This document shows, one piece after another, positions 5,618 through 54,600 of a stretch of 64,000 nucleotides of DNA. This DNA comes from Clostridia bacterium (GTDB lineage: Bacteria > Bacillota > Clostridia > Christensenellales > UBA1242): assembly GCA_045538455.1 (NCBI GenBank), contig JAZSRL010000006.1, positions 131,690 through 195,689 on the forward strand. The letters are read 5' to 3'. A model generated the notes under the pieces. That model was not told where the DNA came from and did not search any database. It saw nothing but the letters and a program-made list of their open reading frames with translations. The position numbers were made by a program, and so were the translations under genes. Numbering within the stretch: position 1 is the stretch's first letter; each line of letters opens with the position of its first letter.

Positions 5618-6091
5618 TTACTCCGCCCGGTTAATTTTTAAAATTTTCAAAGAAATTTGACTTGCCGGAGTTTTAATTATAGCTACTTCCCCAACTTTTT
5701 TACCCAACAAGGCTTTTCCTTTTGGACTTTCGTTTGAAATATAGTTCTTTTCAATATCAAATTCCATAAAGCCAGTAATGACATAGGTTTCTTGTTTTTT
5801 TGTAGCCATGTTTTCAACTAAAACCGAAGTACCTAAATTTACTGCACTGGTATCTGCTGTTTTATATGAGAATATAGTCAAATTTTGCAAAAGCGCTTCA
5901 ACTTCTTTCACACGAATCTCCAAGTTGTTTTGAGCTTCGCGTGCCGCAGCGTATTCAGCATTTTCCTTCAAGTCACCGAACTCACGAGCTTCTTTGATTT
6001 GACGCGCGATATCGCTTCGCTTTGACATTAATTCTGCTAATTCGTCTTTTAATTTTTTTTCACCAACCATAGTTACATATCTAGTTTCCAT
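5618..6091 (-). CDS. greA: Transcription elongation factor GreA
   Basis: Coiled-coil tip 'GDLKENAEYAAAREAQ'; 157 aa; SD GAGGAGGA upstream. Confidence 0.9.
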   Translation of the reverse strand: METRYVTMVGEKKLKDELAELMSKRSDIARQIKEAREFGDLKENAEYAAAREAQNNLEIRVKEVEALLQNLTIFSYKTADTSAVNLGTSVLVENMATKKQETYVITGFMEFDIEKNYISNESPKGKALLGKKVGEVAIIKTPASQISLKILKINRAE

Positions 6092-6176
6092 TTAATCCTC
6101 CTCTTACCATGATAATGGTCATTTATTTTATTTTTTTTATCACAATTTGTCAAGTATTCTCAAAAAAAAACATCTT

Positions 6177-6545
6177 TTAAGGCATCAATAAAGTATCATA
6201 GACGCTGCAATTTAAGTAGCGTAATTTGCGTGCTAAAACATTGAGACCAGTTGCATTCGTCGGTCTTTTGTCAAAAATTTCTTTAAACTTTTCCTGTTCT
6301 TCCCAACGCTCAAACAATGTTGTCAAATTGCGCTCAATACATAGGCGTGTAATTTTTCTTTGGCGCGCAACTTTTAAATAAATAGATTTTAAATTGACAG
6401 CAAGTTCAGTATAATTTTCTGTTGCCACTTTTAACAAATCAATTAATATCGGAAAGCCAATATATTCCGATGGACAATCATATGATAATAAAAAATCACA
6501 AATACCTGTTTTAACTTTATCGCGGTCTCTTTTATCTTTCTTCAT
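6177..6545 (-). CDS. Stand-alone Spo0A C-terminal (DNA-binding effector) domain-like protein
   Basis: By-eye alignment to the B. subtilis Spo0A effector domain, from memory. 'CPSEYIGFPILIDLL' matches 'VPAHIKGYLYLREAI'. 'ITRLCIERNLTTLFERW' matches 'ASRVERAIRHAIEVAW'. 'RPTNATGLNVLARKL' matches 'KPTNSEFIAMVADKL'. There is no receiver domain. Confidence 0.6.
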   Translation of the reverse strand: MKKDKRDRDKVKTGICDFLLSYDCPSEYIGFPILIDLLKVATENYTELAVNLKSIYLKVARQRKITRLCIERNLTTLFERWEEQEKFKEIFDKRPTNATGLNVLARKLRYLNCSVYDTLLMP

Positions 6546-13218: not shown

Positions 13219-13255
13219 AAAAATAGAGTTAATTTTCTAACTCTATTTTTGTTTT
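13219..13255. terminator. Bidirectional rho-independent terminator between convergent rnr and the lipoprotein gene
   Basis: Arms AAAAATAGAGTT (13219-13230) and AACTCTATTTTT (13239-13250) flank an 8-nt loop. T-runs follow on both strands. Confidence 0.75.
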
Positions 13256-14225
13256 AATTAGACATGAAATTTATAGTTAATTCATATGTTTTACCATCAG
13301 ATTCTACGGTATTAATGACACTATAATACGTCATAATCCATGTGGTACTTTTGTCTAAAACACAAAGTTGATGACCACTCCAAAAAATAGGAATCTCAAT
13401 AAAATAACTACCTAATTCACATTTAACATCAAATACAAAAGAATCTTCAGTAAGTTTTGTAATATTAGTTGTATAAGCAACCTCACCACCTGAAAGTTGT
13501 ATATTACCAATCGCATATTCATATACAACACTGGCGCTATCTTCCATGTCGCTCAGCGATGGAACTAACTTACTTACAGAAACAAATTCCGAAGATGTTA
13601 AAATCTGTTCCAAATTATCTTCAAAAACTTCTATCTGGGAACTATCAACAAGATAGTAAAAATACCCTGCAAAACTATTACAAGCTGTGTAAATAGTCTG
13701 TTTCGGATTTATGATATCTTCAAGTTTTATTTGAATGGTTTGCTCTTTCGAGTAAGGCTTTCCGTCCATTTCCCAATGTGTAAAATCGGAATCGCCAGCT
13801 GTCATTGTAATATTTTTACCATCAAACTCAACTGCCGCATTTTCAACGATAATCGGAATAAAAACCGCAGTTATAATTTTATTCTCTATTGCGGGAAAAC
13901 TTTCCAATCTACTATATTTATTACTCGAACCCTGAATATAATCTCCATCTACACCTAAAATCATTCCATCACCATCTACTTCCCAATGGCTAAACATACA
14001 ACCTTCTTTAGGAAGTGCTTCTATATAAACCTTTTCATTGTCAAAATAATTACCACTACCTGAAGCAGTTCCCCATTCAAGATTATTTGATTTTACAGTT
14101 ATCGATCTAACTTCACTTGTTTCACGTGAAGGCAAAAAACTGCAGGCACTAAAGATAAAAGAACTACTGATACATAAAACTAAGACAAAGATTGTACATA
14201 AAAATTTTTTAACATTTATTTTCAT
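13254..14225 (-). CDS. Lipoprotein with InlB-B-repeat/Flg_new-like modules
   Basis: Signal peptide plus lipobox 'IFSAC'. 'GTASGSGNYFDNEKVYIEALPKEGCMFSHWEVDG' and 'FTHWEMDG' resemble divergent InlB B-repeat modules, from memory. SD AAGGA upstream. Confidence 0.65.
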   Translation of the reverse strand: MKINVKKFLCTIFVLVLCISSSFIFSACSFLPSRETSEVRSITVKSNNLEWGTASGSGNYFDNEKVYIEALPKEGCMFSHWEVDGDGMILGVDGDYIQGSSNKYSRLESFPAIENKIITAVFIPIIVENAAVEFDGKNITMTAGDSDFTHWEMDGKPYSKEQTIQIKLEDIINPKQTIYTACNSFAGYFYYLVDSSQIEVFEDNLEQILTSSEFVSVSKLVPSLSDMEDSASVVYEYAIGNIQLSGGEVAYTTNITKLTEDSFVFDVKCELGSYFIEIPIFWSGHQLCVLDKSTTWIMTYYSVINTVESDGKTYELTINFMSN

Positions 14226-14252: not shown

Positions 14253-14278
14253 ATTATAAAAAAAAAAACATTTGTCAA
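14253..14278 (-). promoter_or_regulatory. Candidate lipoprotein promoter with a T11 tract in a 14-nt spacer
   Basis: Minus strand: TTGACA (14278-14273), AATG plus T-run, TATAAT (14258-14253). The plus strand shows A11 at 14258-14268. The spacer is only 14 nt at this tract length. Confidence 0.4.
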
Positions 14279-22102: not shown

Positions 22103-25100
22103 TTAAACTCCGCGGTTATACGCTTCGTCTTTTGGCAAGTAGCCTGTATTAATCGTCCCTTCATCTATTTTATTACCGAGACTATTGCTTGGCACATAAG
22201 TTATATCAATATCATCTAAATCAACAATTTCCCCATTTCCAATGGAAACATCATCTATATGTGGCGGAACCACAGCAACATCGTTATTTTTTCCACTTTC
22301 CGAATTGCCTACCGAGACATCTTTCATATTTAACGCGCTAAGTTTTGTTTCTGTTTCAACTTGAGTTTGAGATTGAGATTGAGATGCACTTGGTTCAGTT
22401 GCAGCACCGCTTGTGCTTGAATTTTCATTTGTTGCACTTTCAATACCGCTGGTATCTGCGCTTGCACCCGCGTTAGGCCTAATTAAATCACCGGTTTGAT
22501 CAATGTTTATTAACGCCTTTTGAATTGCGTCTACATCAGCATCAGTAAGTGTACCATTGCATAAATTTTTAAGCGCTTCTTGATAGCCAGCACCTTCACA
22601 TTCACCCGCCGCTTCAAAACGAGCCGCACTACCCAATTTACGCAGAACACCCATTGGATCTTCAACACCTGCATGCTCCAACAAATCAACAGCCTTAGCT
22701 TGTTCCGCATGAGTATACCAATCCTGTTTTACACCGTCAACATATTGACGATGATTGTTTACATCAGCTGTTTTACGAGCCGCATCGGTTAATTCGATTT
22801 TATCATTCAGAGCGTCCAACTCAGCTAAGCTTTCCGGGCTAAGCTCTCTAAGCATATCATTTTGATAACTTAGGTTGTAATTATCTTGAACAGCTCTATA
22901 GCTGCGGTAGCTGCGGTTTTTTTCATAAGTGTCCATTAATTCTTCATTATTACATAAATCTTGATATTCTTGATATCTTTTGTGATAATTTTTTTGAACA
23001 TCTTCATAGGTGCGGTTATCTTCATATATAAATTGCGTATCATCTGAAACAACTGGACTTTCCGCAGGACTTTCCGATTGACGATTAAAGATACCCTTAA
23101 ACTTATCACCAAGATTTCTAAGTTTATCACCAACATCAATAGTCGAGTCATCCCCAAACATTTCTCCAATTTTAGCACCGCCCCAGGCACCAATTTTAGC
23201 ACCGTACTTGGCACCAAGTTGACCGCCGGCAAACATTGCACCCGCCTTTCCTGCCGCATGAAGAGCGGCGCCCCAACGTTCTTTTCTATTTATGCTTTTA
23301 AAATTTTGCCCAAAGACTTTAGCTTTATTTTTTAATCCTTTTAAACCCTTTTCTACAGTTTGATTTTGTGATTGGTTGCGTTGTTTTGCGGCCGTGCGAT
23401 TTACATCATCATACCATGTTTTAACAAACACCCAAACAGCACTAACAGCACGAGCTTTTGACCCCAACACAGCATAAGTTAGTGATGTACCTAAATATGG
23501 TAAAGATTTGAGAACCATTGCGCCCGCAACTCTTCTGGCGATTTTTTTAACATCTGAAGATTTCAAATCGGAATTTTTTGATGCCTTTGCTTTTTCTTTT
23601 TTATAGGTAGACCACGCAACACGCCCCACATTAGCCACAGCCACAAAGGGAGCAAAAAATTCACCTATACCAATAGCTCTTAAAGCACTAAACACCCCAG
23701 CACCAGTCACTGACATACCAAGAGTTGTAATTACATCAGTAACTGGGTTAAACTTTTTTCCTTTATTTGCCGGTTGTTCCGCAATTTGAAGCATTTTTCC
23801 ATCTGCACCCTTTTCAATAATGCCCTTATCTGTTAAAGCTTTAAGCACAAGATTTTCGTTTGCAACCATACCTACAAAAAGCGCCTCTTTATCACCAGGT
23901 TTTTTAGCGCCTTTAGCGGCATATAATTGTTCTTTTTTTGCAATCGCATCTTCCCCATACAAAAGAGAATAAAGTCCATCAAGTTTTTGTACATTTTGGG
24001 TATAACCATAGCCAGCGACATTCGATTGAGGTTGTCCGTTAATAATTGCTTCAAGTTTTTTTTGAAAATCTGGGTCTTGATCTTTTAATTCTTTGACAGA
24101 ATTTGAAAATTCTTGAAAGCTTTCAACTTGTTTATCAATTTTTTCAAGAAAATCTTCTTTTTTTTCTTCAGGCACAATAGCATCAATTACTTTTTTCAAG
24201 CTTTCTTCATGTAATGTAACCAAAACTTCATCATCTAATTTTGACAAGACAGATTTTTTATAAATCCATTTTTTAAATTTGTTTTTCTCTCTACGGTCTT
24301 TTGCGTTGTTTTGCCCAAATTTTTTATAAGCATCACTATCAACCATGTCCGCTACCATATCAAAAGAAACAGTACCAGGATCATTATTAGTTTTATCAAT
24401 GATTAAGCCCACCAATTTTTCATCGGTAAAACTATCTTTGGTTAATAAGTTTATTATTTCATTTTTCAATTCCGCCGCTTGTGGCATATCTGCTTCGGGA
24501 TTCAAACTACGGAAAATATACTTACCAAAATCAATCGAGCACAAAGTATTCCCAAAATCATCATTAAAATAATTGTTTAAAAATTTAGCTCTCAAAGAAT
24601 ATGGGTGTATACCCTTTTTAGCCATTTTGTCAGCTTGGTTAACTGATTCAGTAAGCGCCGCTCCGGATGCATCAACATCTACAAGCTGCTCATTTGCTTG
24701 TTTCATATAATTAGTAAACTGTTCTTCATATTCTGGTCGAGTTAAACCTGATTGACCAGCCAAATACGCTTCCGTAAGCTTTTTCGCCTCTTCAATTTTA
24801 TCTTCGACAGTATGTATTTGAAACAAAGACTCAATAATTTGATTATTAAAACCATCTCTTACATCTTTATAAGAACCAAAATTATTCTCCACTTTTTTAG
24901 TTAGAAGATACACAAAGGCTTGTTCAATCTTATTGATATCATTTGTTAAGTCTTCAATATGATCTAATGGTTTTTTGGAGGTTCCCTTAAAAACAATTTC
25001 TGGTTCAGGCAACATAGCATATTGTGCGTTTACAGTTTGCGGCACATTATCCAATGCATTTAAACTTTCTTGCGGCGGCACATTATCAAATGTATTTAAA

Positions 25101-25522
25101 CTTTCTTGCGGCGACACATTATCAAATGCATTTAAACTTTCTTGCGCTTGCTGTGCATATTGTTCTGCTCTGTTTATTAAATTATCAACATTTTGTTCTC
25201 TTTTCCGTAAACCTGCAGTATCAGCTGGAACCTCATGCAATTCCGCTTCAGCCGAACTAGCAGAATCATTAGCATTCTTGATAAGTGTTTGAATATCAGA
25301 AATCTGTTGATAATTTAATCTTAAAAATTCTTCAAGACTTTCAGGTGATAAAGTGTCTCTCAACGAATTAATACGATTACTTAAACTTCTTTCAACATTC
25401 TCAATGCGTTTAGAAACATTATCAAGTCTATCGCTTGGTGTTTGATAGTTCTTGATTTTTTCATGTTCTGCTAAGAAAGCATCTAATTCTTCTTGAGTAA
25501 TATCTATGTTGTTTTCCGCCAT
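22103..25522 (-). CDS. Orphan ~1,139-aa coiled-coil, membrane-embedded, glycine-zipper protein
   Basis: Start taken at ATG 25522 (MAENNIDI...); the track start is a TTG inside the promoter. No N-terminal signal peptide. The N-terminal half is long, helical and charged. Central hydrophobic hairpins include 'VITTLGMSVTGAGVFSALRAIGIGEFFAPFVAVANVG' and 'VAGAMVLKSLPYLGTSLTYAVLG'. A glycine zipper reads 'AALHAAGKAGAMFAGGQLGAKYGAKIGAWGGAKIGEMFG'. The tail is Ser/Thr/Gln-rich. Confidence 0.7.
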   Translation of the reverse strand: MAENNIDITQEELDAFLAEHEKIKNYQTPSDRLDNVSKRIENVERSLSNRINSLRDTLSPESLEEFLRLNYQQISDIQTLIKNANDSASSAEAELHEVPADTAGLRKREQNVDNLINRAEQYAQQAQESLNAFDNVSPQESLNTFDNVPPQESLNALDNVPQTVNAQYAMLPEPEIVFKGTSKKPLDHIEDLTNDINKIEQAFVYLLTKKVENNFGSYKDVRDGFNNQIIESLFQIHTVEDKIEEAKKLTEAYLAGQSGLTRPEYEEQFTNYMKQANEQLVDVDASGAALTESVNQADKMAKKGIHPYSLRAKFLNNYFNDDFGNTLCSIDFGKYIFRSLNPEADMPQAAELKNEIINLLTKDSFTDEKLVGLIIDKTNNDPGTVSFDMVADMVDSDAYKKFGQNNAKDRREKNKFKKWIYKKSVLSKLDDEVLVTLHEESLKKVIDAIVPEEKKEDFLEKIDKQVESFQEFSNSVKELKDQDPDFQKKLEAIINGQPQSNVAGYGYTQNVQKLDGLYSLLYGEDAIAKKEQLYAAKGAKKPGDKEALFVGMVANENLVLKALTDKGIIEKGADGKMLQIAEQPANKGKKFNPVTDVITTLGMSVTGAGVFSALRAIGIGEFFAPFVAVANVGRVAWSTYKKEKAKASKNSDLKSSDVKKIARRVAGAMVLKSLPYLGTSLTYAVLGSKARAVSAVWVFVKTWYDDVNRTAAKQRNQSQNQTVEKGLKGLKNKAKVFGQNFKSINRKERWGAALHAAGKAGAMFAGGQLGAKYGAKIGAWGGAKIGEMFGDDSTIDVGDKLRNLGDKFKGIFNRQSESPAESPVVSDDTQFIYEDNRTYEDVQKNYHKRYQEYQDLCNNEELMDTYEKNRSYRSYRAVQDNYNLSYQNDMLRELSPESLAELDALNDKIELTDAARKTADVNNHRQYVDGVKQDWYTHAEQAKAVDLLEHAGVEDPMGVLRKLGSAARFEAAGECEGAGYQEALKNLCNGTLTDADVDAIQKALINIDQTGDLIRPNAGASADTSGIESATNENSSTSGAATEPSASQSQSQTQVETETKLSALNMKDVSVGNSESGKNNDVAVVPPHIDDVSIGNGEIVDLDDIDITYVPSNSLGNKIDEGTINTGYLPKDEAYNRGV
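25041..25148 (-). repeat. 3 x 36-bp in-frame tandem repeat inside the orphan gene
   Basis: Units at 25041-25076, 25077-25112 and 25113-25148 encode QESLNAFDNVSP / QESLNTFDNVPP / QESLNALDNVPQ. Confidence 0.9.
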
Positions 25523-25526
25523 ATTG

Positions 25527-25558
25527 TATTGTACAATAAGCGACAATATTGTACAATA
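25527..25558. promoter_or_regulatory. Two copies of the perfect 12-bp palindrome TATTGTACAATA, overlapping the promoter of the orphan gene
   Basis: Copies lie at 25527-25538 and 25547-25558, 20 bp start to start. On the minus strand they supply TTGTAC (-35-like) and TACAAT (-10, 25533-25528). The ATG at 25522 follows 5 nt after the -10. Confidence 0.5.
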
Positions 25559-25614
25559 CAAATTAGTAATTTTGCTAAAGTTTTTTTAGACTAAATTATT
25601 TAGCGACAATCTAT

Positions 25615-28547: not shown

Positions 28548-29386
28548 AGCAATTCGTCCAAATTAAATTTACCAATCTTTCCTTCGCGATATTCTGTTAA
28601 AATCATTTTTGCCGCGCGCCGAACATCTAAGACCCCACCCCGCAAAATACAGCCACGCTTTTTCGCAATTTCTTCAAAAGAAGTAACACCAAAACGGCTT
28701 AAAACGGCTTCTGGTTGTAATTTAGTTAAATCCGCAAGAAGTGATTGACTTAATGCAATAGTGTCTACTATATCATCTTTAATCGAGCCAACATATGCCA
28801 AATTACGCGCAACTTGTTGATTTGTAAAAGATGGCCACAGTGTTCCTGGAGTATCAAGCAACCAAAGATTATCTGTTATTGATACCCATTGTTTTGTGCG
28901 CGTTACACCCGGACGATTTCCTGTTTGCGTCTTGCCCTTGTTTGTCATATTATTAATGAATGTTGATTTTCCGCAATTTGTAACGCCAATCACGGCTACA
29001 CGCAAAGTCTTAGTAATCCCATGTGCTAGTTTAGCTTTAATGCGTTCGGCTAACAATTTTTGTAAAGCATTAATAACCGATTGTGTTCCACCACTCTTTA
29101 CAGAATTGCGTGTAATCACATCATACGGGGTTTTTAATTGTAACGATTGAATAAATTTTTCCTTTACACCATTGGGCGCCAAATCGATTTTATTTAAGAC
29201 AAACAAGACCGGTTTACGCCCCACAAAATCATCGAACTGTGGGTTAATACAGGAGCGCGCACAACGCGCATCAACGACATAAACAATTGCATCACAGTTT
29301 TTTAATTCTGCATCAATCATTTTTAAAGTTTGGGCCATGTGTCCTGGGAACCAGTTGATATTAACTTTTGACATTGGGTTTTCCAT
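28544..29386 (-). CDS. rbgA: Ribosome biogenesis GTPase A (YlqF/RbgA)
   Basis: 'INWFPGHM', circularly permuted G motifs 'LNKIDL' then 'GVTNCGKSTFIN', and 'DTPG'. Confidence 0.85.
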   Translation of the reverse strand: MENPMSKVNINWFPGHMAQTLKMIDAELKNCDAIVYVVDARCARSCINPQFDDFVGRKPVLFVLNKIDLAPNGVKEKFIQSLQLKTPYDVITRNSVKSGGTQSVINALQKLLAERIKAKLAHGITKTLRVAVIGVTNCGKSTFINNMTNKGKTQTGNRPGVTRTKQWVSITDNLWLLDTPGTLWPSFTNQQVARNLAYVGSIKDDIVDTIALSQSLLADLTKLQPEAVLSRFGVTSFEEIAKKRGCILRGGVLDVRRAAKMILTEYREGKIGKFNLDELL

Positions 29387-29424
29387 CTTTGTATGATATC
29401 ACAAATATTAAAAATAGAAATCTA

Positions 29425-30528
29425 TTATTTCACAAATAATTTTTTAATCAATGGCAAACGATACAAAATCATACTTGTAAGCAATGACATAATCATGGCA
29501 TATAAAAAGAAAATAAATTCAACTACGATTGTTGGGAATATTATAATATCTATTTTTAGATTTAACAAAAGTTCAAGCCAAAAAGGATGAATAAGATAAA
29601 TACCTAAACTATATTTAGATATACAATTAATAATCTTATTATTCTTTATTTTTAATTTACCACTAGAAAACATTTTAAAAATCATCATTGATTCTAAAAT
29701 CATAAACATATCTAATTGATCTGAAACATTAAAACAGCAAGCAATTACAAAAAATATTACACCTATAATCCCGCATATATAAATATATTTATCCTTAATT
29801 AGATCAGTATAAGTTAAATAATAACCGACTAAATAAATGAAAACAAATTTATCTACATTGGCAAAGGTAAAAATATAAATATTAAAATAGTCATTAATCG
29901 TAGGTATAACACAAGTAGTTACAAATAATAACAATAACACAAATAAAGCAGTCTTTTTATCCGCGTGATTAACAAAAATTCGCAAAACAGGAGTTAAAAT
30001 ATATAATCCAATCAAAATGACTAAATACCACAAATGACTTCCATCATTTAAAATTAAATCCTTACAACTTTGAAAAATTACTTTTGGTAATTTCGTAACA
30101 AAATCAAAAAAGTTTTTAAAATTTAAAGAATAAAGATTACTTGATAAACAATAAATAAAACCAAATAAAGCACCCAAGCACATTATTCTAAAGATATAAG
30201 TTATAATCTTTTTAAGACTAACTTCTCGTTTTGGGTTTAGCAATAAGCATCCCGAAATCATAATAAAAACAGGAACAGCAAATAAGCAAAATGGATATAA
30301 AAAAACCTTATTTAATAAAGACCCTACTGAGTTAGGTGAAACAATACAACAACCAATGACATGATTCAACACAACCGCCATGCACGCTATTGCGCGTAAG
30401 ACGACAATCCACTCAATTCTCTGGTTCGCTAAACCCTTAAGCTCGGGAATAGGTTGTACAGAAATTGACGATGATTCCTCTACTCTGTCATCATTATTTT
30501 CAGTTTGGCCAATTTGGTCAACGCCCAT
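29425..30528 (-). CDS. Membrane acyltransferase, AT3 (OafA/OatA-like) family, paralogue 1
   Basis: AT3 N-terminal signature 'RIEWIVVLRAIACMAVVLNH' followed by about 10 TM segments; 367 aa. Confidence 0.75.
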   Translation of the reverse strand: MGVDQIGQTENNDDRVEESSSISVQPIPELKGLANQRIEWIVVLRAIACMAVVLNHVIGCCIVSPNSVGSLLNKVFLYPFCLFAVPVFIMISGCLLLNPKREVSLKKIITYIFRIMCLGALFGFIYCLSSNLYSLNFKNFFDFVTKLPKVIFQSCKDLILNDGSHLWYLVILIGLYILTPVLRIFVNHADKKTALFVLLLLFVTTCVIPTINDYFNIYIFTFANVDKFVFIYLVGYYLTYTDLIKDKYIYICGIIGVIFFVIACCFNVSDQLDMFMILESMMIFKMFSSGKLKIKNNKIINCISKYSLGIYLIHPFWLELLLNLKIDIIIFPTIVVEFIFFLYAMIMSLLTSMILYRLPLIKKLFVK

Positions 30529-30536
30529 ACAGGATT

Positions 30537-30565
30537 AACATACAAAAAAAGAAAAAAAATTGCAA
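30537..30565 (-). promoter_or_regulatory. Candidate promoter of acyltransferase 1 with a homopolymeric spacer
   Basis: Minus strand: TTGCAA (30565-30560), a 17-nt spacer T8-C-T7-G (30559-30543), TATGTT (30542-30537), 8 nt, ATG 30528. No SD. Confidence 0.45.
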
Positions 30566-30604
30566 GTACAAAAAAATGTTACAAAAATTAAGGATAGAAA
30601 TATT

Positions 30605-31773
30605 TTATTTTGTGAACAATTTTTTGATTAATGGTAACCGGTACAGAATCATACTTGTTAATAAAGACATTACTAATGTAAAAGCAAAAACCATAAACTC
30701 ACCAATAAATATTGGCAATAGTGTAAAGTGGATTTTAGCAACTTTTAAGACATGTAACCAAAATATATTTGTCGCGTAAATGCCAAGGCTATACTTAGCA
30801 ATACAATTAAAGAATGAATTATTTTTGATCTTGATTTTATGACTTAAAAACACCTTTAATATCATCATTGATTCAAGCACCATAAACACATCTAATGGAT
30901 GGGAAACTCCAAAATAACAACCAATCAAATAAAAAATTACTCCAACTACACCGCCGATATAAATTAACTTACTATTTATAAAATCAGTATTAGTAATATA
31001 ATAACCGACTAAATACATAAATACAACACTACTTAACTCGGTAACCGGAACAATTTCAAAATTAAAATAATTATTAATTGTAGGAATAATACAAGTTGTT
31101 ACAAACAAAATAATTAGAACACAACGAGCTGTTTTACGATCAGCAAATTCCGTAAACTTTCTTAATATTGGAGTTAAAATATATAAACTAATTAACATGG
31201 GTAAATACCAAAGCCAAGGCGCAAAAGTGTATAAATTTCCCTGCATTAAACCGTTAAAGAACTTTAAAAAACTTTGATATATCCATTTTTTCAAATTTTC
31301 AAAATTGCGCAAACTATTGAATGTTAAGTCATGCGCAAAACAATAGCCCAACCACAAAACAACAAATAAAATTATAATTTTAATTATATATTTAATGATT
31401 TTATTGATTGTTGTGTTCCTTTTGGGATCCAACAACAGCGTTCCAGAAATCATAATGAAACAAGGAACAGCGAAGCGGATTAAAGGCTGTAAAATTATTT
31501 CGTTAATAACTGAACGAACCACTCCATATTTATGGAAATCAATATATTGAATATATGCAACATAACAATCAATAATATGAATTACAATTATTGCCATACA
31601 TGCGAACGCACGGAGAATGACAATCCATTCAATCCGTTCGTTAGATGGTGTTCCTTTTAATTCAGGAATCGGTTTAATGGTATTGTGATTTGCATCAGAT
31701 GATTTTTCCTGCTTTGTATAGGGGGGGGGGTAAATTCATTCGCTGAATGATCTGTCGTTTCATCTGCTTTCAT
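30605..31773 (-). CDS. Membrane acyltransferase, AT3 family, paralogue 2; reading frame broken at a G10 tract (candidate phase-variable gene, OFF as written)
   Basis: The track ORF 30605..31597 starts mid-motif at '...CMAIIVIH'. The same frame upstream encodes 'IKPIPELKGTPSNERIEWIVILRAFAC', which matches paralogue 1 'VQPIPELKGLANQRIEWIVVLRAIAC'. ATG 31773 (MKADETTDHSANEF) runs into G10 (31721-31730) and is out of frame, hitting a stop at 31657-31659. G11 or G8 would give one ORF of ~389 aa. Confidence 0.7.
31721..31730 (-). repeat. Homopolymeric G10 (C10 on the coding strand) tract in the 5' coding region of acyltransferase 2
   Basis: Read directly as ...gtata GGGGGGGGGG taaatt... It is the longest G/C run I noticed in this AT-rich window. 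Confidence 0.95.
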
Positions 31774-31779
31774 GCTTTA

Positions 31780-31808
31780 TTTATATAATAATCAACACGA
31801 GAAAGCAA
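31780..31808 (-). promoter_or_regulatory. Candidate promoter of acyltransferase 2
   Basis: Minus strand: TTGCTT (31808-31803), N17, TATAAA (31785-31780), 6 nt, ATG 31773. No SD. Confidence 0.45.
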
Positions 31809-31825
31809 ATACAAATTTGCTAAAT

Positions 31826-32488
31826 TCAATCTTGTTTCGGAACAAATTTTTCGGTTACGAGGGTGCTAGCTTCATCTTTCCATTTTTGAATGGCGGCGTG
31901 GTTTCCCGAAAATAAAACTTCCGGAACTGAGACACCGTGCCATACGCGCGGGCGCGTATATTGTGGATATTCAAGTTTACCATCGGTGTAACTTTCGCTA
32001 ATTAGACTATCCTTATTAATCACTCCGTCAACATAACGCGACACAGAATCGACCAGAACCATTGCCGGAATTTCCCCACCGGTTAAAACGAACTTCCCAA
32101 TCGAAATAACTTCATCAAAGCACATATCAATTACGCGTTGGTCTACGCCTTCATAATGACCACACAATACAATAATATGTTCATATTGTGCTAACTCGAC
32201 AACACGGTCTTGATTAAGAATAGGCGCTGCCGGAGTCATAAAGACGCGATGCGCTTTGTGCTCTGGGTCAATGGCTTGCAAGCAATCATAAATTGGTTGA
32301 CATGACAAAACCAACCCTGCCCCTGGTGAGTATGAATGGTCATCGACTTTGCGATGTTTGTCCGTTGAATATTCACGAAAGTTAACGACTTCAATTTGCA
32401 GTTTCCCCGCCTTCGAAGCACGCCCTAGAATACTTGTTTGCAATGGAACAAACATTTCTGGAAACAAAGAAAGAATCGTCCAACGCAT
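31826..32488 (-). CDS. trmD: tRNA (guanine37-N1)-methyltransferase
   Basis: 'MRWTILSLFPEMF' N-terminus and 'DKHRKVDDHSYSPGAGLVL' (a divergent form of DDxPYGGGxGM). Sits in rimM-trmD synteny. Confidence 0.8.
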   Translation of the reverse strand: MRWTILSLFPEMFVPLQTSILGRASKAGKLQIEVVNFREYSTDKHRKVDDHSYSPGAGLVLSCQPIYDCLQAIDPEHKAHRVFMTPAAPILNQDRVVELAQYEHIIVLCGHYEGVDQRVIDMCFDEVISIGKFVLTGGEIPAMVLVDSVSRYVDGVINKDSLISESYTDGKLEYPQYTRPRVWHGVSVPEVLFSGNHAAIQKWKDEASTLVTEKFVPKQD

Positions 32489-45628: not shown

Positions 45629-48600
45629 TTATCTTCTTCTCTTGCGGATAATCATGTAGATTATGATCATCGCTGCTGAGACTGCTACTCCGACACCTAT
45701 GATGACAAACATTGTTCCATTTGTGTTTGTTGACTTTTCTATTTCTGGCTCGGGTTCCGGTTCAGGCTCTGGCTTGGGTTCCGGTTCTTCTGCTTTCTCT
45801 TCTAAACTATAATTAAAGACTCCGGATTCTACTTTACTACTATCTAATGTTTCTGCGTTATTCAATTCGTTCCATGCTTCAAAATTTTCTAAGTATGTTT
45901 GTAGTGTGTTGTAGTCCAATCCAGATAATGCCATGTATGCGCTCGCTCCATTCGCAACTTTACCAGAACTGTGTACCTCTTCGTTGTCCTTGTTATAGAA
46001 TTTACATTCAATATAATCACTTGCGTCTTCGTTCAACAATGCTACAAATACTATGTCGCGTGTTGCCGTCATTCCAAACTCGTATGGCATGTTTTCGTCT
46101 TCTGTATACCAGCCTAAAATGTAACCACCAAAGATTTCTGCCAAGTCGTTCCCGTCTTTGTCTACATTTACTTGTGGTAAGATTATCAAGTCGCCTTCTT
46201 TTATTAATTGACCACCTTGACTTGAGTCTTCGCTTGTGTTGTACCAGCTTCCATCTCGCGCTACTGCATAACGGTTTGTTCCATTATCTATGATCCATTC
46301 CACTCTATATATTGTTTCGTCTATCGCAAAATATTGTGCATATAACACTACTGTTTCGTTGTCGGTATAAGTCATGCTTCCATTTCCATAGTGTTTACCA
46401 CTTCCTGTTATTGAATCATTCCAACCGTTTGTTATTAATTCTATTTCGTTTTCTGTTGTTTTCGTATATGTATTTTCTTTTAAGGTTAAATCAATACCAT
46501 GCCATTTCCAGTCTTCTTCTATTGTTCCTTCCCCACCGTTTGCATCATATGTTATTTTGTATAATTCGTACACATACAAGTAAGTTGTTTCTTCGATTAA
46601 TCCTTGGTTAATTGCTGTTTGGTTTACTATCTCACTGCTCAACAGTATGCTTAATTTTGTTGCTTCTGCTAATGTTTCACTGCTCATATAGAAATATCCA
46701 GCACTTACTACTTCAACACGAATCAGCGCATTATCATTCGCTTCACTTACATCAGTTATGCCAAGTGTTAATTTTCCATTCTTTGCTACTGTTCCTTCTA
46801 CTCTGAATACTGCTGTTTCGTATGTCGTTGCGCCGTCTAAATCAACCCATGCTCTTACTGTTGGGAACCCATGTTGAGCGTTATAATCTCCCATTACGAT
46901 TTCAACAACTCGATTGCGTTTTACAATATAAGTACTGTATTCACCTGTTTGTTCGAAATCATAGAAGTTAGCGTCATCATTTGGAGCTGTTAATTTCAAT
47001 TTAAATTCATATGTTCCTAATTCTGCATTTTCCAATGCACCTGCTTCCCAAGGAGTCCATCCTTCTGTTCCACTCTTGCGATAGAAGTATTGAATGTGAT
47101 CTGCAATTTCTTCATTCATAAATGGATATGAGCCATTAATGTATGTCATTTCTCCATCTTCATAAACCGCTTTCAAGGTGTTTTCCCCAAAGGTCAGTTT
47201 ATTTATTGTTATCGTTATGAGTAATGGTGTTGAGCGTCCATCGCTTTCACATACTTCATTTGGTACAAATGTGAATATCGTATCATTGTAATTAATTCTG
47301 TAGTACACATTATATGTGCCGGTATTTTTCAACTCTAACACTGGACGATACACATTTCCATCTAGGCTATATTCAAAGAATGGTGCATTTTCAGTTAAAT
47401 TTCCTTCGTCTGTTGACAACTCAGCACCTTCAAAGATAATTTCTTGTGATTCGCCTGTGTACATCATTTGTTTTGATTGTGGTCGACTTACAACTGACAA
47501 TGTATAGCTTTCTACTACTATTTCTAATTTTTCACCAGTTGTATTATCTTCTGTACCAACAAAGTTATAATTTTCACTTGTGTGAACTCTGTACCAAATT
47601 GTATAATTTCCAGCTTTATCTGCTTCTGGCATATCTTTTTGCCATGTGCGTTGACCTACTTCTGGTGCATCAAGTGTATATTCGACATATAATTCTTCAT
47701 TTTCAGTTGCAGTCAACACACCCGCTTCTATCAATGGAATGTTATAACCTGGATATTTCAAACCTGTTTTTGCGGTTGGTCTTTGTTCCCATTGAACATC
47801 ACAGCTGGTAATTTCTACTGTCAATGTTTTTGCTTCAGATTCTACAAAGTTTCCTGTTGTAGATGCTGTTACATAATATGTTATTTCATATGTTCCTACA
47901 TTTTGTTTTCCTGGTAATGCTGCATCATTCAACCATACATGCTTGTTTTCAGATTGGTTAAATGAATAACTGTATTTTATATTTGGTGCATCATTGTAGA
48001 AGAATACGATTTGAGAACCTTCTAAGCCAGCACCGCGATCACCTTCTATGCTTGCCAATGCTCCGAATGTTATCAAGTCTTGGATCGTTCCATTGTAAGT
48101 TAATTCTTCTTTTGCTTCTGGTACTGCACTTAAGCCTATTCCTTCTATATCAGCTGCAACTTTAGCTATTTCTACATCTGCAGTAAATTCTGTAAGTTCC
48201 CAGTTGTTATTTTCAGCATCTGCTTCAATATAGTAATAAATTTCGTATACTTTTGCATCTGTTGCTTTTAATTCTTCTATGTCAACAGTTAATATTTCTT
48301 CAGCTATGATTGCATATTTTACAACTAAACCTGTTGCTTCAATATATTCTCCATTTACTGCACGGAATTTAATAATTGGTGCGCTTTCTACCAAGTTTTG
48401 TTCTGTTCCGGTGTATTTTAAACCAGTTTTAACAATCAAATTCTCTTCTAAACAAATATCAGCTTGACCAATATTAATTGTCTTATAATGTTTTGCCTTA
48501 AATGCGTTGAAGTTTTTACTTTCATTTTCTACACGAACCCAAAGGTAATAATCACCAGCGTTTGTTCCTTCTAGTTCATTTATATCTTCAACCCAAGTTG

Positions 48601-51600
48601 TTGGTGCTGTTATCGTGTCTTCACTTAAACCCCATTCGCAGACAAGGTCTGGATTTAATTCGTGAGTATTTAAGTTTATACCATTATTGTCTAATGTAAT
48701 TGTAGTTTTTCCGTCAATGAATGTTGCTAACGATTGTGCTTGCCCAATATAAACTAATCCCTCGTTTTCACTAATTCCAATATTACTTAAACTTAATGTA
48801 GCTTTGAAAATTTGTGCAAATTCTTCTTCAGAATAAAGTTTTACATAATCATTTATATTTTTTTGGTTTGTAACTGAATTGGATTTAGTTGTTACTTTAA
48901 TCCATATGTAATATTTATCCGCATCGCGTGCTTCCAAATCCGCAATCTCAGATACATAACTTGCTGGTTGAATTTCTGGGTTGTTTGAATATCCGTATTC
49001 AACAGATTCAACATTTTCAGCATTTAAAGTGTTTCCATTAATATTTTGGACTACTTCTGTTGTAATTAAGTCTTGGTTTTGTCCATTGTATGTCAATGCT
49101 TGGTTAATGTTTATGCCACTTAATTCTATGTTGTCTCCTGTCGCTGGTGTAATTGTAACTTTTGCGACATATTTACGATCGATACTTGTGTGGTTTTCTC
49201 CTGCTTCAAACGCAACCCAAATATAATAAGTACCGGCATTTAATTCTGTTACTTCACTTAAATTGTACGCACGGTCTTCTTTAGTGGTACCTTCGGTTGT
49301 AAATTCATCTCTGTCTCCGCTAATGTAGTATTTGACAGTACCTAAATTACCTTCCAAATCTGTACCATTTCCCATTTGTAGTTTCGGCGCAGATGTAATT
49401 AAGCGAACTTCTTCACCTGTGTATACCAAGTCGTCTTCTTTGGCAATACCCAATCCTACAATATTTAATTTGAGTCCATCAATGCGTGTAATTTCTGTCA
49501 AACTGTCGCCTAATACTGGCACAATATAATCAGTAGATTGGTCAATATTTGTGGTTGTTGTTAACCATACAAATAATTGGTATTTTCCAACTTGCGTTTC
49601 TTTTGCGTCCGCAAGACTGCCATACCATGTTGAAGTCTTTGTCGGTTCGAACTCACCTTCGCCTACAAAACAATATTTAATGTCAGTTATTTCTTTATCA
49701 GTAATTTCTTTGTTGGTTGTTGGAATAATTGCAATTAATTCACCTGCTGCTATTGCTTGTTCATCGCCTGAAAACTCTTTTGGAGTTGCATTAATACCTG
49801 AAAGTTTAATATCCGAATGTTTTGCCGGTGCGATAATTGCTGCATAGTTTGTAAAGGCAACTACTTCACTCTCAATACAACTTCCGTCTTCAACTTTTAC
49901 AAACACAATTAAGTAATATGTGTCCGCGTTCGTTTGTTTCAGTGTTTTGTAATCAGTACTCCAACCATTTGCAATCAAATCACCTTCAATGGACGGATAT
50001 ACAGATGCATCATCACTTAAATAGTAGTATGGTGTATACGCATAATCTTCATTTGGTACTACTTTGTATTGACTGGTTTCTGCACTATTTGGAACGCTTA
50101 CTTTTAGAGCAAAGCCACTAATCAATGCTTGACCTTCAGCATTAAAGCGTAAATCTTCAATTACTGTCACTGTCGATTGGTCATATTTTTGTTCAGATGC
50201 CAAATTAATCTTAATTGCGTAGTTTTTGTTGTAACAAACTGGATCAATACCTTTGTGGTTCTTACCACTATCATCTACGCGTACCCAAATATAATAACTA
50301 CCTACTTTGCGTGCTTTCAGGTCTGCGAAGTTTGGTGTCCAGCAATCTTCTTCAATTGCCGGTGCTTCTGTATTTGAACTTGTCAATGCGTAGTAAATTT
50401 TACCCATTGTTTGACTTTCGGCACCAGTCGAATATTTTATACTTGTTCCGTTGATTGTGTAATCCAACGCAGCTTCTAAGAATGTATGATCCGCTGCATT
50501 GTAATCATATTCGTGTTCTTTTGTCCATGTACATGCTTGCATGGTAATTTCCGCACGCTGAATTTTAACTGTAATACTACTTGGCGATACCGCACTTTCG
50601 TTTTGACTAGCCGCAACATAACGATACCATAATGTGTATTCTCCTGCGTCTTTTTGACTTGCTAAGTTATCAAATGAAACATAATTTGCGTCGGTATTCC
50701 ATGCATACTCTAATTCACGATTTTCTTCTCCAATTATAGCAAAACCTTTTGTAATCAATTCGCTTGCTGTTCTTGATTCTCCATTGTAAATCACATCATT
50801 AGATTGCGGGATAATTGCTGTCGCATCTTGTGGATAAATTGTTACCTCATAATATGGATAACCTGTACTTGGTTGTGATTCCGCAACGAACGATCCATCA
50901 CTCGTAGCTGCACCGCGATAGTAAATTTTATAGGTACCTGCAGTAGTCGGACAAACTGCGTCACCATAAGCCGAGAAGGTTGTACCATTTAATGAATATT
51001 CCACCGCTGGCGAAATTTGCGCACTTGGTATAATCAAGTCTACCGGTGAACCATTGGCAACTAATCTATCTGTTTTCTTTTGTGGTTGTAAGTTACTGTC
51101 AACAAATGAACTTGCCGCCACAATTTTTGCAGTTTTATTGGTATTAATTGTTGTCGCCAAATTAACATTTTTGTCGTTAATGGTAACCTTTACCCATAAG
51201 TAATACGCTGACTTCACTGCTGTCGCCTCTGCAGCCGCAATTGTATCTACCCAACCACTTGTGCTTGCGGTTATTCCTGAACTCTGATCCGAAATTAAAT
51301 ATTGATAAGATACTGTGCCGTTATATGCTGCACCATTGAAGTTAATACTTGGTATTGTCGATGTCGCATCAAACAATGCTTGACTCTTCGCTATGTATGT
51401 TCTTGCCGAAGTCGAGAAGTCATATTTGAAAACCGAACCATTACTGCTCTTGGCGGTGGCAATATCCTCACTTTTCAATGTAACTTCGTTTGTACCTAAA
51501 CTGGTTATTTGCGTAATTTTGAATTTAGGAACAACCACATTACTTTCGTAAGAGTAACGGTAATGTGTTGAACCCGCTTTGACATTGTCTCCACCCGTCC

Positions 51601-54600
51601 ATTTTACCCAAATATAATAGGTAGTACCACAATCTTTAATGCCCAACTGACCTATTGCATCAATACTATAATAACTGGTTGATGCTTCCGTTTCAGTACC
51701 GACCGCGAACGACAAGGTACCAAATTCGTCGGATGTAATTTGGGCATTGTTTACGGTAGCCGTCGGTGTTTCCGATTTGGTTGCTAATGTATATGCACCG
51801 TTTTTAAATGGTTTACTGAAAACATGACTTGTATCTGGTGTGCCCCAGTTGCTGAATGACAAACCCGTAAATTCCAAGTTCGCATCCAATGCAGTGTACT
51901 TGTTAACTTGCAATGTCCCATAAATCTCACCGTTCGATGCCGCAACAGTCGGGCTGGCATCCCATTTCACCCATAAATAGTACGGTGTATCCTTCGCCGC
52001 GGTGACTTCAAGCGTACTTAAATCTTCTGTCCATGATGATGATGATGGTTTAGTTGTTGCATCGTTTGTAAAAGCATAATAGGTGGTTCCCAAGTCAACT
52101 TTTTCTGTTGCCTTAGCGGCACCAGTCGCCAATTTATATGGACTGCCGCTGTAAGTAACTGTACCGGCTCTAATGTCTGATGTCGCGCCCGTCATAGTCA
52201 AACCATCCAAAGTTACATCGTCAAAACCAGCAACGGTAAAGCTGTCGCCCAAGAATGTGGATCCGGTTGTCAGGTTTGCGTGTTGAAGAACTCTGAACCA
52301 TAAATACCATGTTGTCGCTTGGTTAACAGTTTCCTCTTTAATTGCCGCATTCAAAGCCTCTGCATTCAAAGCCTCTGCCGTGGTATATGGTTTATATCCA
52401 CTACTTGGCGCTGTCGAAGCTGTCGTCAAAATATATTGCAATTGATTGGTATTGTTTGTCTCGCCGTTTAATGAAAGTTGTTTGGTGGTAATACCATTAT
52501 CTGTGTCAATACCACAAACTTTTAAATCCACAGCCACGCTTGAATATGGCGTACATACCGCATTGGCATTTAATTTTAAAGAAGTATTATATGTCAAACC
52601 ACTGACCGTCACATTGTCAGGTGTCGCAGCAATTTGATTAATCCTTGTCGTACCAATTTCCTTATAACTTTCTTGCGTGCTGTATTGATAAACTGCAGTA
52701 CCTGTTACATTTTTTAATGTCCATTTTGCATAAACTTTAATTGTCGCAGCGGAAGTGCCAGTAAAAGAACTATAGTTACTATACTCATTTACCAATGTAC
52801 GACCATCAATATATGTCCTTACCACCTTATACATAACATCAAAATGTGATGTTGGTGCGGTGGATGTTAAGGTTGGCGCTTGGGCAAATACAGCATGGCT
52901 TTGTCCATCGTAGTTACATTCCCCTGCCAAATTCGGGGTGATTGACAAACTTGCTTTGCCAATGGTTGCGTAGACATCCGCATTGTTTGCGTCCTTAACT
53001 ATCGCCCAGCTCGTGCCGCTACAGTTTGCCGACTCGGTCAAGCGATACCATAAAAAGTATTTGATTTGTTCGGTTGCGGATGTCCAACCGTCTTGGGCTT
53101 GCAACGCCGACAAATCCGTGGTGACCGTGCTGGATATTGGCGCCGTCGCCGACGCAAGTGTGGAATATCCGTATTCAATGGATTGACCCACAGATGTACC
53201 GTCATAGATGTGTCCAGCACCAGTAAACAGTGTTAGACCTTCACCGGTATAAAACAAATTTGTCTTTGCTGTTAACACCGATGACCCTTTGTTATCTAAT
53301 TTTGGTGTTGACATTTCAATCGTGGCCGCAACAGGACCCGACCAAGATGTGTGGTTGTCATAATTTGCACTGCCGTTAAAACGATACCAACAATAATAGG
53401 TACCAAAATTTGTACGCGTCAAGGTTTCTACATCCTCAACACCGGTCACAGTCGATGCTGGTGCAGCGTTTTCGTCGGTTACATAGTACTCTATGTGACC
53501 GTCGGTTACGGCTACATTATCGCTATCTAATGCAACTTTTGAACCTGTAAACAAAATTTGTGCGCTATTGGTAAATGGCATCAAATTCGGATGCGCCGTA
53601 ATTGTACCAGTTCCTTCTTTAGTTATATTAACAGTTGCGCGTGCCATGGTTGCACGAAGATTCGAATATACCCACCCAGTTGTTGCTGCACAGTTAGTCG
53701 TACCATTTTGTTGATACCACAAGTAAAACTCACCCGTTCCAACATTTGTTGATACTAAATCACTAACATCTGTCTTAACATTAGCATTGGTCACAGCAAC
53801 GGTTGGTGTAGCTGAAGTACCCGTCACATAATAATAAATTGTATCACCATCACCCGTACTGTTTGCCGCCGCATTTTCTACGCCTACGGCTTCGAACAAT
53901 TTTTGGGAATTTTTGTTATAGGTCAAACTTTGTGCCACAAGTGAACTGTTTGCAGTGAATGTCGGTGCGGCAAGCTTGGAAATTGTTTTGCTGAGATATG
54001 TTCCGTCGGATAATTTAACCCTCTGCGCAGGAACTGCGGTACAATAGTCGGTTGCGTCAACTTTGTACCACAAATAATAGGTACCAATTGCTTGGCCTGC
54101 TGCAAGTTTTACAGCAGAAATATCAGTTGTCCAATCGCCTGTTGCTGCGGAAGATGAACCAAGTGCGTATTGAATCTTTCCGTTACTGTCTGTATAACCA
54201 GCACCTTTAAACAAAGTCCGTGCCTCTTGAGCATTAAAATATACGGCGTCAGTTGTTGCAACATCCAAACTATCTTTTTCTAATTTACACTCGTCTTTTT
54301 TGTCAATAATAACCGATTTGGATAAATAAACTGGTGAGTCAATATGTGATGTATTTTCCGTTTTTTCATCGATACTTGATTTTGCAAAAATATAATAAGT
54401 ACCAGGTTCCTCTGCAGCAAGCGACAACACGGTACCCCATTCGCCAATTTTTGTCGCATCGCTCCATGCGCTGGATGTATTTAAACAATACACGAATTTC
54501 GACAAGTCGCCATTAGTACAAACCGCTTCCAAAGTCGAATTCGGACACACATATTGTGAACTGCCGTTCCATTCCAAACCAGTTTTAACACTAATATTTG

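Follow-up and report, generated by a model that had tools for sequence, protein, structure and literature searches.

The trmD-rbgA locus and its poly-C tract

The stretch of DNA analyzed here, referred to as the window, comprises 64,000 nt of a contig from an uncultured Clostridia bacterium (JAZSRL010000006.1, positions 131,690–195,689), and the element in question is a homopolymer tract near the 5′ end of a gene for an acyltransferase 3 (AT3) protein. Throughout the clade, the genes follow the order thrS-rimM-trmD-[AT3]-rbgA-yraN; the AT3 position is occupied by 1 or 2 genes, which are only 45%–70% identical between lineages. The window carries 2 AT3 genes in tandem on the minus strand. Paralogue 1 (29425–30528, 367 amino acids) is intact and lies 76 nt downstream of paralogue 2, which contains the tract. 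The intergenic gaps around the AT3 genes are 52, 76, and 38 nt.

Positions 31721–31730 read GGGGGGGGGG on the plus strand, that is, C10 on the coding (minus) strand. From the start codon (31771–31773), the coding strand reads ATG AAA GCA GAT GAA ACG ACA GAT CAT TCA GCG AAT GAA TTT A-C10-TATACAAAG; the C10 run begins 43 nt after ATG 31773 and occupies codons 15–18. The frame of this ATG translates as MKADETTDHSANEFTPPPIQSRKNHLMQITIPLNRFLN and ends at a TAA (31657–31659) after 38 codons (open reading frame [ORF] 31657–31773). The AT3 frame is the −1 frame (30605–31735, 376 codons plus stop), which opens at 31735 just past a TGA (31736–31738), reads ...YTKQEKSSDANHNTIKPIPELKGTPSNERIEWIVILRAFACMAIIVIH..., contains the whole Pfam PF01757 domain, and ends at the stop codon at 30605–30607. 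The original prediction, which was made from the sequence alone, had described this anatomy and attributed the break to the tract; its coordinates and translations (ATG 31773, G10, TAA after 38 codons, and the adjacent AT3 frame) were all correct on recheck, and the frame interruption sits exactly at C10. In dinucleotide-preserving shuffles, a G10 run is expected 0.01 times per window. The tract is the sole G/C run of at least 8 nt in the 64 kb, and its rarity exceeds chance. The sole other run of at least 6 nt is a C7 at 56762, which is a G7 on the coding strand of a 3,884-amino-acid ORF that is intact nevertheless.

Upstream of the tract, ATG codons occur in 2 of the 3 frames: ATG 31773 in frame 0, and ATG 31763 (31761–31763) and ATG 31739 in frame +1. 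The ORFs computed for each tract length fall into 3 classes: (i) lengths of 2 mod 3 (C8, C11, and C14) give products of 388–390 residues from ATG 31773, with 388 residues for C8 and 389 for C11; (ii) lengths of 0 mod 3 (C6, C9, C12, and C15) open a full-length ORF of 384–387 residues at ATG 31763, whose 13-residue tail (MKRQIIQRMNLPPP...) differs; and (iii) lengths of 1 mod 3 (C7, C10, and C13) have no upstream start and leave a 38-residue peptide and a 330-residue remnant. The claim that G11 or G8 would restore the gene thus stood with respect to these 2 lengths and was incomplete, because G9 and G12 also restore it through ATG 31763. The window tract is in the sole null frame; gain or loss of a single base would reopen a full-length ORF.

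The extra ATGs in frame +1 stem from the codon pairs GAT-GAA and AAT-GAA, which are also found in a tract-less relative (L013, described below); therefore, these ATGs may be accidental. ATG 31773 and the 50 nt upstream of it are conserved and almost identical in L013. A TTGCTT-N17-TATAAA sequence was read by eye at 31780–31808 (minus strand), ending 6 nt before ATG 31773, and was not listed by the promoter scan; it could be a promoter whose mRNA has little or no leader. When 29300–32100 was scanned for promoters and terminators, the promoter-like sites were at chance level, which leaves the scan uninformative on promoters, and there were no terminators. The short gaps and the lack of a terminator-like site are weakly compatible with co-transcription of the AT3 genes with the housekeeping genes. 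A scan of the window with Rfam found 2 tRNAs and nothing else, with nothing at the tract.

The restored protein as an AT3 acyltransferase

The protein encoded by the restored frame matches PF01757 (Acyl_transf_3) with an E-value of 1.7e-27 and a score of 96.8 bits (cut-off 31). The match extends over profile positions 2–326 of 326, on residues 49–379 of the restored ORF, and this full-length match above the curated threshold bears out the original designation of the gene as an AT3 acyltransferase. The restored protein is 47.6% identical to paralogue 1 over the full length. It is a stand-alone AT3 protein, with no SGNH domain in the Pfam search. The AlphaFold2 model (predicted local distance difference test score 77.5, predicted template modeling score 0.78) has a bundle of long helices spanning residues 46–389, which fits a polytopic membrane protein of about 10 transmembrane helices (TMHs), with TMH1 at residues 46–76. 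Residues 1–45 form an N-terminal tail that is poorly conserved in the alignment and has low confidence in the model. Therefore, this tail should tolerate a varying number of prolines, that is, in-frame changes in tract length.

The sequence motifs of the family were compared with those described for AT3 proteins: (i) the R/K-X10-H motif is common to all characterized bacterial AT3 proteins and is essential in OafA and OafB (PMC7448272, PMC9833829). The R-X10-H motif of TMH1 (RAFACMAIIVIH, 31577–31612, minus strand) is formed by R56 (31610–31612) and H67 (31577–31579) in the numbering of the 390-residue protein, both of which are invariant in an alignment of 15 homologues; (ii) the FFXISG-type motif (PMC7448272, PMC9833829) is present in TMH2 as CFIMISG, of which F, I, S, and G are invariant; (iii) the SXXXY motif (same sources) is present in TMH9 as S-L-G-I-Y; and (iv) a strict RXXR motif is not present near TMH3, where the loop reads D-P-K-R-N-T-T (PKRN) and has no second Arg at +3. 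The RXXR motif shows high though not absolute conservation in AT3 proteins (PMC7448272), so its absence does not exclude membership. No NCBIfam family or equivalog was found for the protein, a sequence search of the PDB gave no match, a Foldseek search of the model against the PDB returned spurious G-protein-coupled receptor and major facilitator superfamily matches (all with E > 0.1), and the protein search found no characterized close homologue.

The R-X10-H motif is complete solely in the restored frame. In the frame as sequenced, the 330-residue remnant starts at Met 31597 (31595–31597), which corresponds to residue 61 and lies in the middle of TMH1 between R56 and H67, 5 codons past the Arg. 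All homologues with the motif have their start upstream of this Arg. The OafA substitutions R14A and H25A leave 0.07% and 0.33% of activity, respectively (PMC7448272). The remnant should be inactive, as judged from the sequence and the model, because a start at Met 31597 drops half of TMH1 and the essential Arg.

Length polymorphism and recent origin of the tract

The protein search revealed a 390-residue protein (MBR4419205.1, “MAG: Clostridia bacterium”) that is 100% identical to the restored protein except for one extra proline (TPPPP). Its contig (L001, JAFYKU010000111.1) belongs to RGIG7181, a metagenome-assembled genome (MAG) from water-buffalo caecum. In this contig and in a second assembly (L002), the tract is C14 at the same position with identical flanks, and the 390-residue ORF, which is annotated from the counterpart of ATG 31773, is intact. 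The 2 assemblies are 99.98% identical; we therefore rejected them as independent observations of C14 and counted them as one strain, designated strain A, whose tract length is reproduced by 2 separate assemblies. The comparison of tract lengths rests on 2 independent strains.

Between the window and strain A, there are no substitutions in a block of 1,302 bp (30559–31860), which is bounded by mismatches at 30558 and 31861 and spans the last 35 nt of trmD, the leader, AT3 paralogue 2, and 46 nt of the downstream spacer. The flanks are 81%–97% identical, about 93.7% overall. The sole differences inside the block are the 4-nt difference in the tract and a T7 run (30570–30576) in the 76-nt T-rich spacer between the 2 AT3 genes, which is T6 in strain A. 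On this comparison, the tract changes length much faster than point mutations arise: it changed while about 1,290 other positions did not, which is the signature expected of a hypermutable repeat. Comparison with related genomes, named in the original prediction as a check, lent it partial support: in strain A the tract is of a different length and in frame, and the rest of the gene is identical at the nucleotide level.

A more distant relative, L013 (GCA_045538225.1), which is about 85% identical at the nucleotide level, has a single orthologous AT3 gene whose product shares 70% amino acid identity. At the tract site, L013 reads ACCCAGCCCTGT (ACC CAG CCC TGT), which is in frame from the same ATG and has the length of the C8 state. 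No G/C run of at least 6 nt was found in the AT3 region of any other relative examined. The tract is thus, on the sequence comparison, a recent gain, which arose by substitution (CCCAGCCC to C8) and then expanded. The original prediction had named an interrupted tract in relatives as evidence against a switch. Such an interruption was found solely in L013, which is a different species-level lineage; rather than refuting the switch, it indicates the recent gain.

The identical block, lying in flanks that differ by about 6%, indicates that the 1,302-bp cassette was exchanged very recently between the lineages, or that a common source recently gave it to both. There is a small chance that the block stems from a chimeric metagenome assembly, but the tract and the T-run differ from those of strain A. 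Exchange at this site is also seen in other relatives (L003–L012), whose single AT3 gene (6001–7116 in L003) is a hybrid: the first 60 residues are 95% identical to another AT3 homologue (P0003) and the rest is 98% identical to paralogue 1. Such a hybrid points to recombination of tandem AT3 paralogues within the conserved TMH1 segment, and the trmD-rbgA site is therefore a hotspot for the exchange and fusion of AT3 cassettes. No relatives of the AT3 gene were found in phage and plasmid collections, so an origin of the cassette from a prophage or plasmid is unsupported.

A probable slippage-driven switch and its alternatives

We interpret the poly-C tract, with a probability of roughly 0.6, as a contingency locus of the homopolymer type, placed in the 5′ part of the coding region of a gene for a stand-alone AT3 acyltransferase, through which an uncultured bacterium of the ruminant gut probably turns a cell-surface modification on and off by ordinary slippage. 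At the level of sequence, the features tested for the AT3 family (except RXXR) and for a repeat contingency locus are present. The latter are (i) an uninterrupted G/C repeat inside the ORF, which at C10 (C14 in strain A) is above the slip length of 7–8 nt; (ii) changes in the number of C residues that toggle between full-length and truncated products; and (iii) a repeat number that differs between close genomes with the same surroundings. The location of the tract at codon 15 is also typical of coding-region switches.

In the proposed mechanism, slipped-strand mispairing during replication would alter the length of the tract, presumably in a reversible manner and at a high rate. At lengths of 2 mod 3, translation from ATG 31773 would proceed through the disordered cytoplasmic N-terminal tail and 2–4 prolines into the 10-helix AT3 domain, and the enzyme would be made. 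With a length of 1 mod 3, of which C10 here is an example, translation would stop after 38 codons; the sole downstream start, Met 31597, would give a product without the essential Arg and no active enzyme, and the gene would be OFF. When the length is 0 mod 3, initiation at ATG 31763 could yield a full-length enzyme that differs in its tail and possibly in its amount. Presumably, the AT3 protein transfers an acyl group (acetyl from acetyl-CoA being the likeliest) through the membrane to an envelope glycan. ON cells would acylate this glycan and OFF cells would not, giving subpopulations with and without the modification. A frame switch located between trmD and rbgA would vary the AT3 protein without disturbing its housekeeping neighbors.

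Several points weigh against this interpretation: (i) there is one ON and one OFF observation, from the 2 independent strains that carry the allele. Flank-pattern and protein-guided scans of JGI metagenome contigs found no more copies, and a scan of GTDB genomes found solely the 2 sources already known; (ii) no recognizable Shine-Dalgarno sequence precedes ATG 31773 or ATG 31763, whereas about half of the ORFs in the window have one. A leaderless mRNA from the site at 31780–31808 would fit this absence; (iii) an Asn (AAT, 30767–30769, in GIYATN) occupies the position of a His in all 24 homologues that match SxxSxGIYxxH. This Asn results from a single C-to-A change from CAT/CAC and is also present in strain A; judging from the conservation, the activity of the enzyme may be altered or lost; (iv) no glycan-synthesis genes lie beside the AT3 genes, and none of the neighbors points to the acceptor; (v) the intact paralogue 76 nt away could make the tract-bearing copy dispensable; and (vi) a one-base miscall is possible at a G/C run of 10–11 nt on any platform, and both C9 and C11 would be ON.

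The last point leads to the alternative that C10 is a sequencing or assembly error, so that the true length is in frame (such as C11 or C9), the gene is simply expressed, and the OFF state is artefactual even though in-frame length changes may still occur. On every platform, long G/C homopolymers are the most difficult sites, and a one-base error in either direction would turn an ON length into C10. However, the gap to the sole other strain is 4 nt rather than 1. Moreover, the 12.4 kb common to the window and strain A contain, besides an N-filled scaffold gap in L002, 5 indels, namely those of the tract and the T7/T6 run, a 3-nt indel that keeps the frame of paralogue 1, an intergenic indel of 1 nt, and one of 6 nt at about 25707 in a tRNA-Phe gene. 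The tract indel is the sole one that breaks an ORF, and the other long ORFs of the window (1,010–3,884 residues) are intact through A8/T8 and G7 runs. The assembly is thus not generally error-prone at homopolymers, and a general homopolymer error was rejected. The scaffold gap splits trmD into 2 ORFs in L002 (approximately 5640–6303) by a run of N and is not a real frameshift. Even if C10 were a miscall, the tract would still be unstable, with C11 in one strain and C14 in the other. We therefore regard an artefactual OFF state as unlikely.

Recent non-adaptive pseudogenization, in which a redundant paralogue burdened by a mutation-prone tract is being lost rather than reversibly switched, appears less probable still. 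The intact neighboring paralogue, the many related strains that have one AT3 gene at the locus, and the Asn in place of the family-invariant His would all fit such decay. By contrast, the GIYxxH His is not among the 4 residues that are invariant across all characterized AT3 proteins (PMC7448272), and the allele has no lesion or substitution relative to the intact allele apart from the tract. In addition, the recent spread of the allele between strains with about 6% flank difference suggests usefulness, and the tract of strain A grew from a C8-equivalent to C14 and is still in frame.

Recoding at the C run, whereby a −1 ribosomal frameshift or transcriptional slippage would let C10 yield some full-length enzyme, is very unlikely. 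Recoding would be favored by the ability of tRNA-Pro to re-pair without mismatch in every frame of a C run, by ribosome stalling at consecutive prolines, and by the known tendency of CCC-C sites to frameshift. However, the out-of-frame layout is not conserved, since both L013 and strain A (C14) have the gene in frame; no stimulatory structure was found in the 96 nt that begin with the tract, whose fold (minimum free energy −8.7 kcal/mol, z = −1.21) is matched by 22 of 200 shuffles; Rfam finds no element here; and slippage of RNA polymerase is documented mainly at A/T runs. TrmD, the product of the adjacent gene, makes m1G37, which suppresses +1 frameshifts at CCC-C. We considered and rejected a link between this neighbor and the tract as probably a coincidence: the trmD-AT3-rbgA order is kept in tract-less relatives, and the frame would not be regained by one +1 shift. 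Finally, although no ATG/GTG/TTG precedes Met 31597 in the AT3 frame as sequenced and the gene caller gave the 330-residue product, its use as the normal start of a functional enzyme, with the tract as an irrelevant leader, which the original prediction had allowed for, is excluded for practical purposes by its position inside TMH1 past the invariant Arg, the 0.07% activity of OafA R14A (PMC7448272), the upstream starts of the motif-bearing homologues, and the conservation of the upstream frame as coding in L013 and strain A.

A second variable repeat was observed elsewhere in the window. A T11 run (14258–14268, minus strand) lies between perfect TTGACA and TATAAT sequences upstream of ORF 13254–14225, whose 323-residue product has an InlB B-repeat (PF18998). 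The TTGACA-TATAAT spacer is 14 nt in the window, 16 nt (T13) in L022, and 18 nt in L021, where it consists of T9 plus a 4-nt duplication (GACA). This T-run is a candidate for a second repeat switch, acting through a promoter spacer, at a surface-related gene, and its variability modestly raises the prior for such switches in the lineage. No Pfam family was found at E ≤ 1e-5 for the ORFs at 45629–57283 (3,884 residues) and 22103–25561 (1,152 residues), both on the minus strand. In a broader and doubtful reading, the tract would select between 2 N-terminal isoforms or levels and a null state, it would be carried by a mobile 1.3-kb cassette that recently moved between strains about 6% diverged into the trmD-[AT3]n-rbgA hotspot within an apparent housekeeping operon, and together with the T-run it would form a repeat-based phase-variable surface gene set. 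To our knowledge, such gene sets are essentially undescribed for uncultured ruminant-gut Clostridia.

Returning to the single-gene switch, its components resemble several known systems. Neisseria pglI encodes a pilin-glycan O-acetyltransferase, an AT3-SGNH protein (PMC9558356), that is phase variable by a polyG tract (PMC10425976). As with the present gene, an AT3 acyltransferase is switched by a poly-G/C tract in the coding region and its state differs between close isolates (PMC10425976, PMC9558356). However, pglI encodes an AT3-SGNH fusion with a known substrate in a Gram-negative pathogen, whereas the present protein is a stand-alone AT3 from an uncultured Clostridia MAG lineage, and no close sequence relationship between the 2 is detectable. 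The lipooligosaccharide (LOS) O-acetyltransferase gene oafA of Haemophilus influenzae also varies in phase; the copy observed first, in strain Rd, carried a frameshift, and other strains have it intact (PMC9558356). It shares with the present gene an AT3 product, repeat-mediated phase-variable expression, and a frameshift in one genome with intact copies in others, and differs in its tetranucleotide repeat, its Gram-negative host, and its substrate, heptose III of LOS. In Haemophilus lic1A-type switches, as in this gene, ATGs lie in 2 of the 3 frames upstream of the repeat, so that its length could choose between 2 initiation sites and a null frame, but the second start here is putative and possibly accidental.

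Among Gram-positive organisms, the stand-alone AT3 proteins WcjE, WciG, and WciZ of Streptococcus pneumoniae are variably inactivated between isolates, which alters a surface antigen (PMC9558356). They resemble the present protein in organization, host type, and variable inactivation, but their genes are in capsule loci and their inactivation is often irreversible, whereas no glycan-synthesis genes are found near this gene, which sits between trmD and rbgA. The wciZ gene switches serotype 15B to 15C via a TA repeat. Oac of Shigella phage Sf6 and other AT3-only O-antigen acetyltransferases are likewise domain-only proteins of about 330–390 residues with 10 TM helices, and Sf6 Oac has the R/K-X10-H and F-x-x-I-S-G motifs (PMC7448272). 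Unlike the present gene, the gene for Sf6 Oac is phage-borne and has no repeat switch; the present protein is without the strict RXXR motif (PKRN).

Repeat-switched AT3 genes are thus an established kind of system, and this probable further case, from an uncultured ruminant-gut Clostridia lineage, adds to the concept incrementally. For annotation, the “gene” of 330 residues that was called in this genome should be regarded as a remnant, not as a functional enzyme. The length of the tract can be read from metagenomic reads, which would make it a practical marker of ON and OFF subpopulations. If the interpretation is correct, this lineage stochastically varies the acylation of its cell envelope. 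Mucosal pathogens use such variation to escape antibody and phage; in this ruminant-gut lineage, the most plausible role of the switch would be to adjust phage adsorption or the recognition of the cells by host or lytic enzymes.

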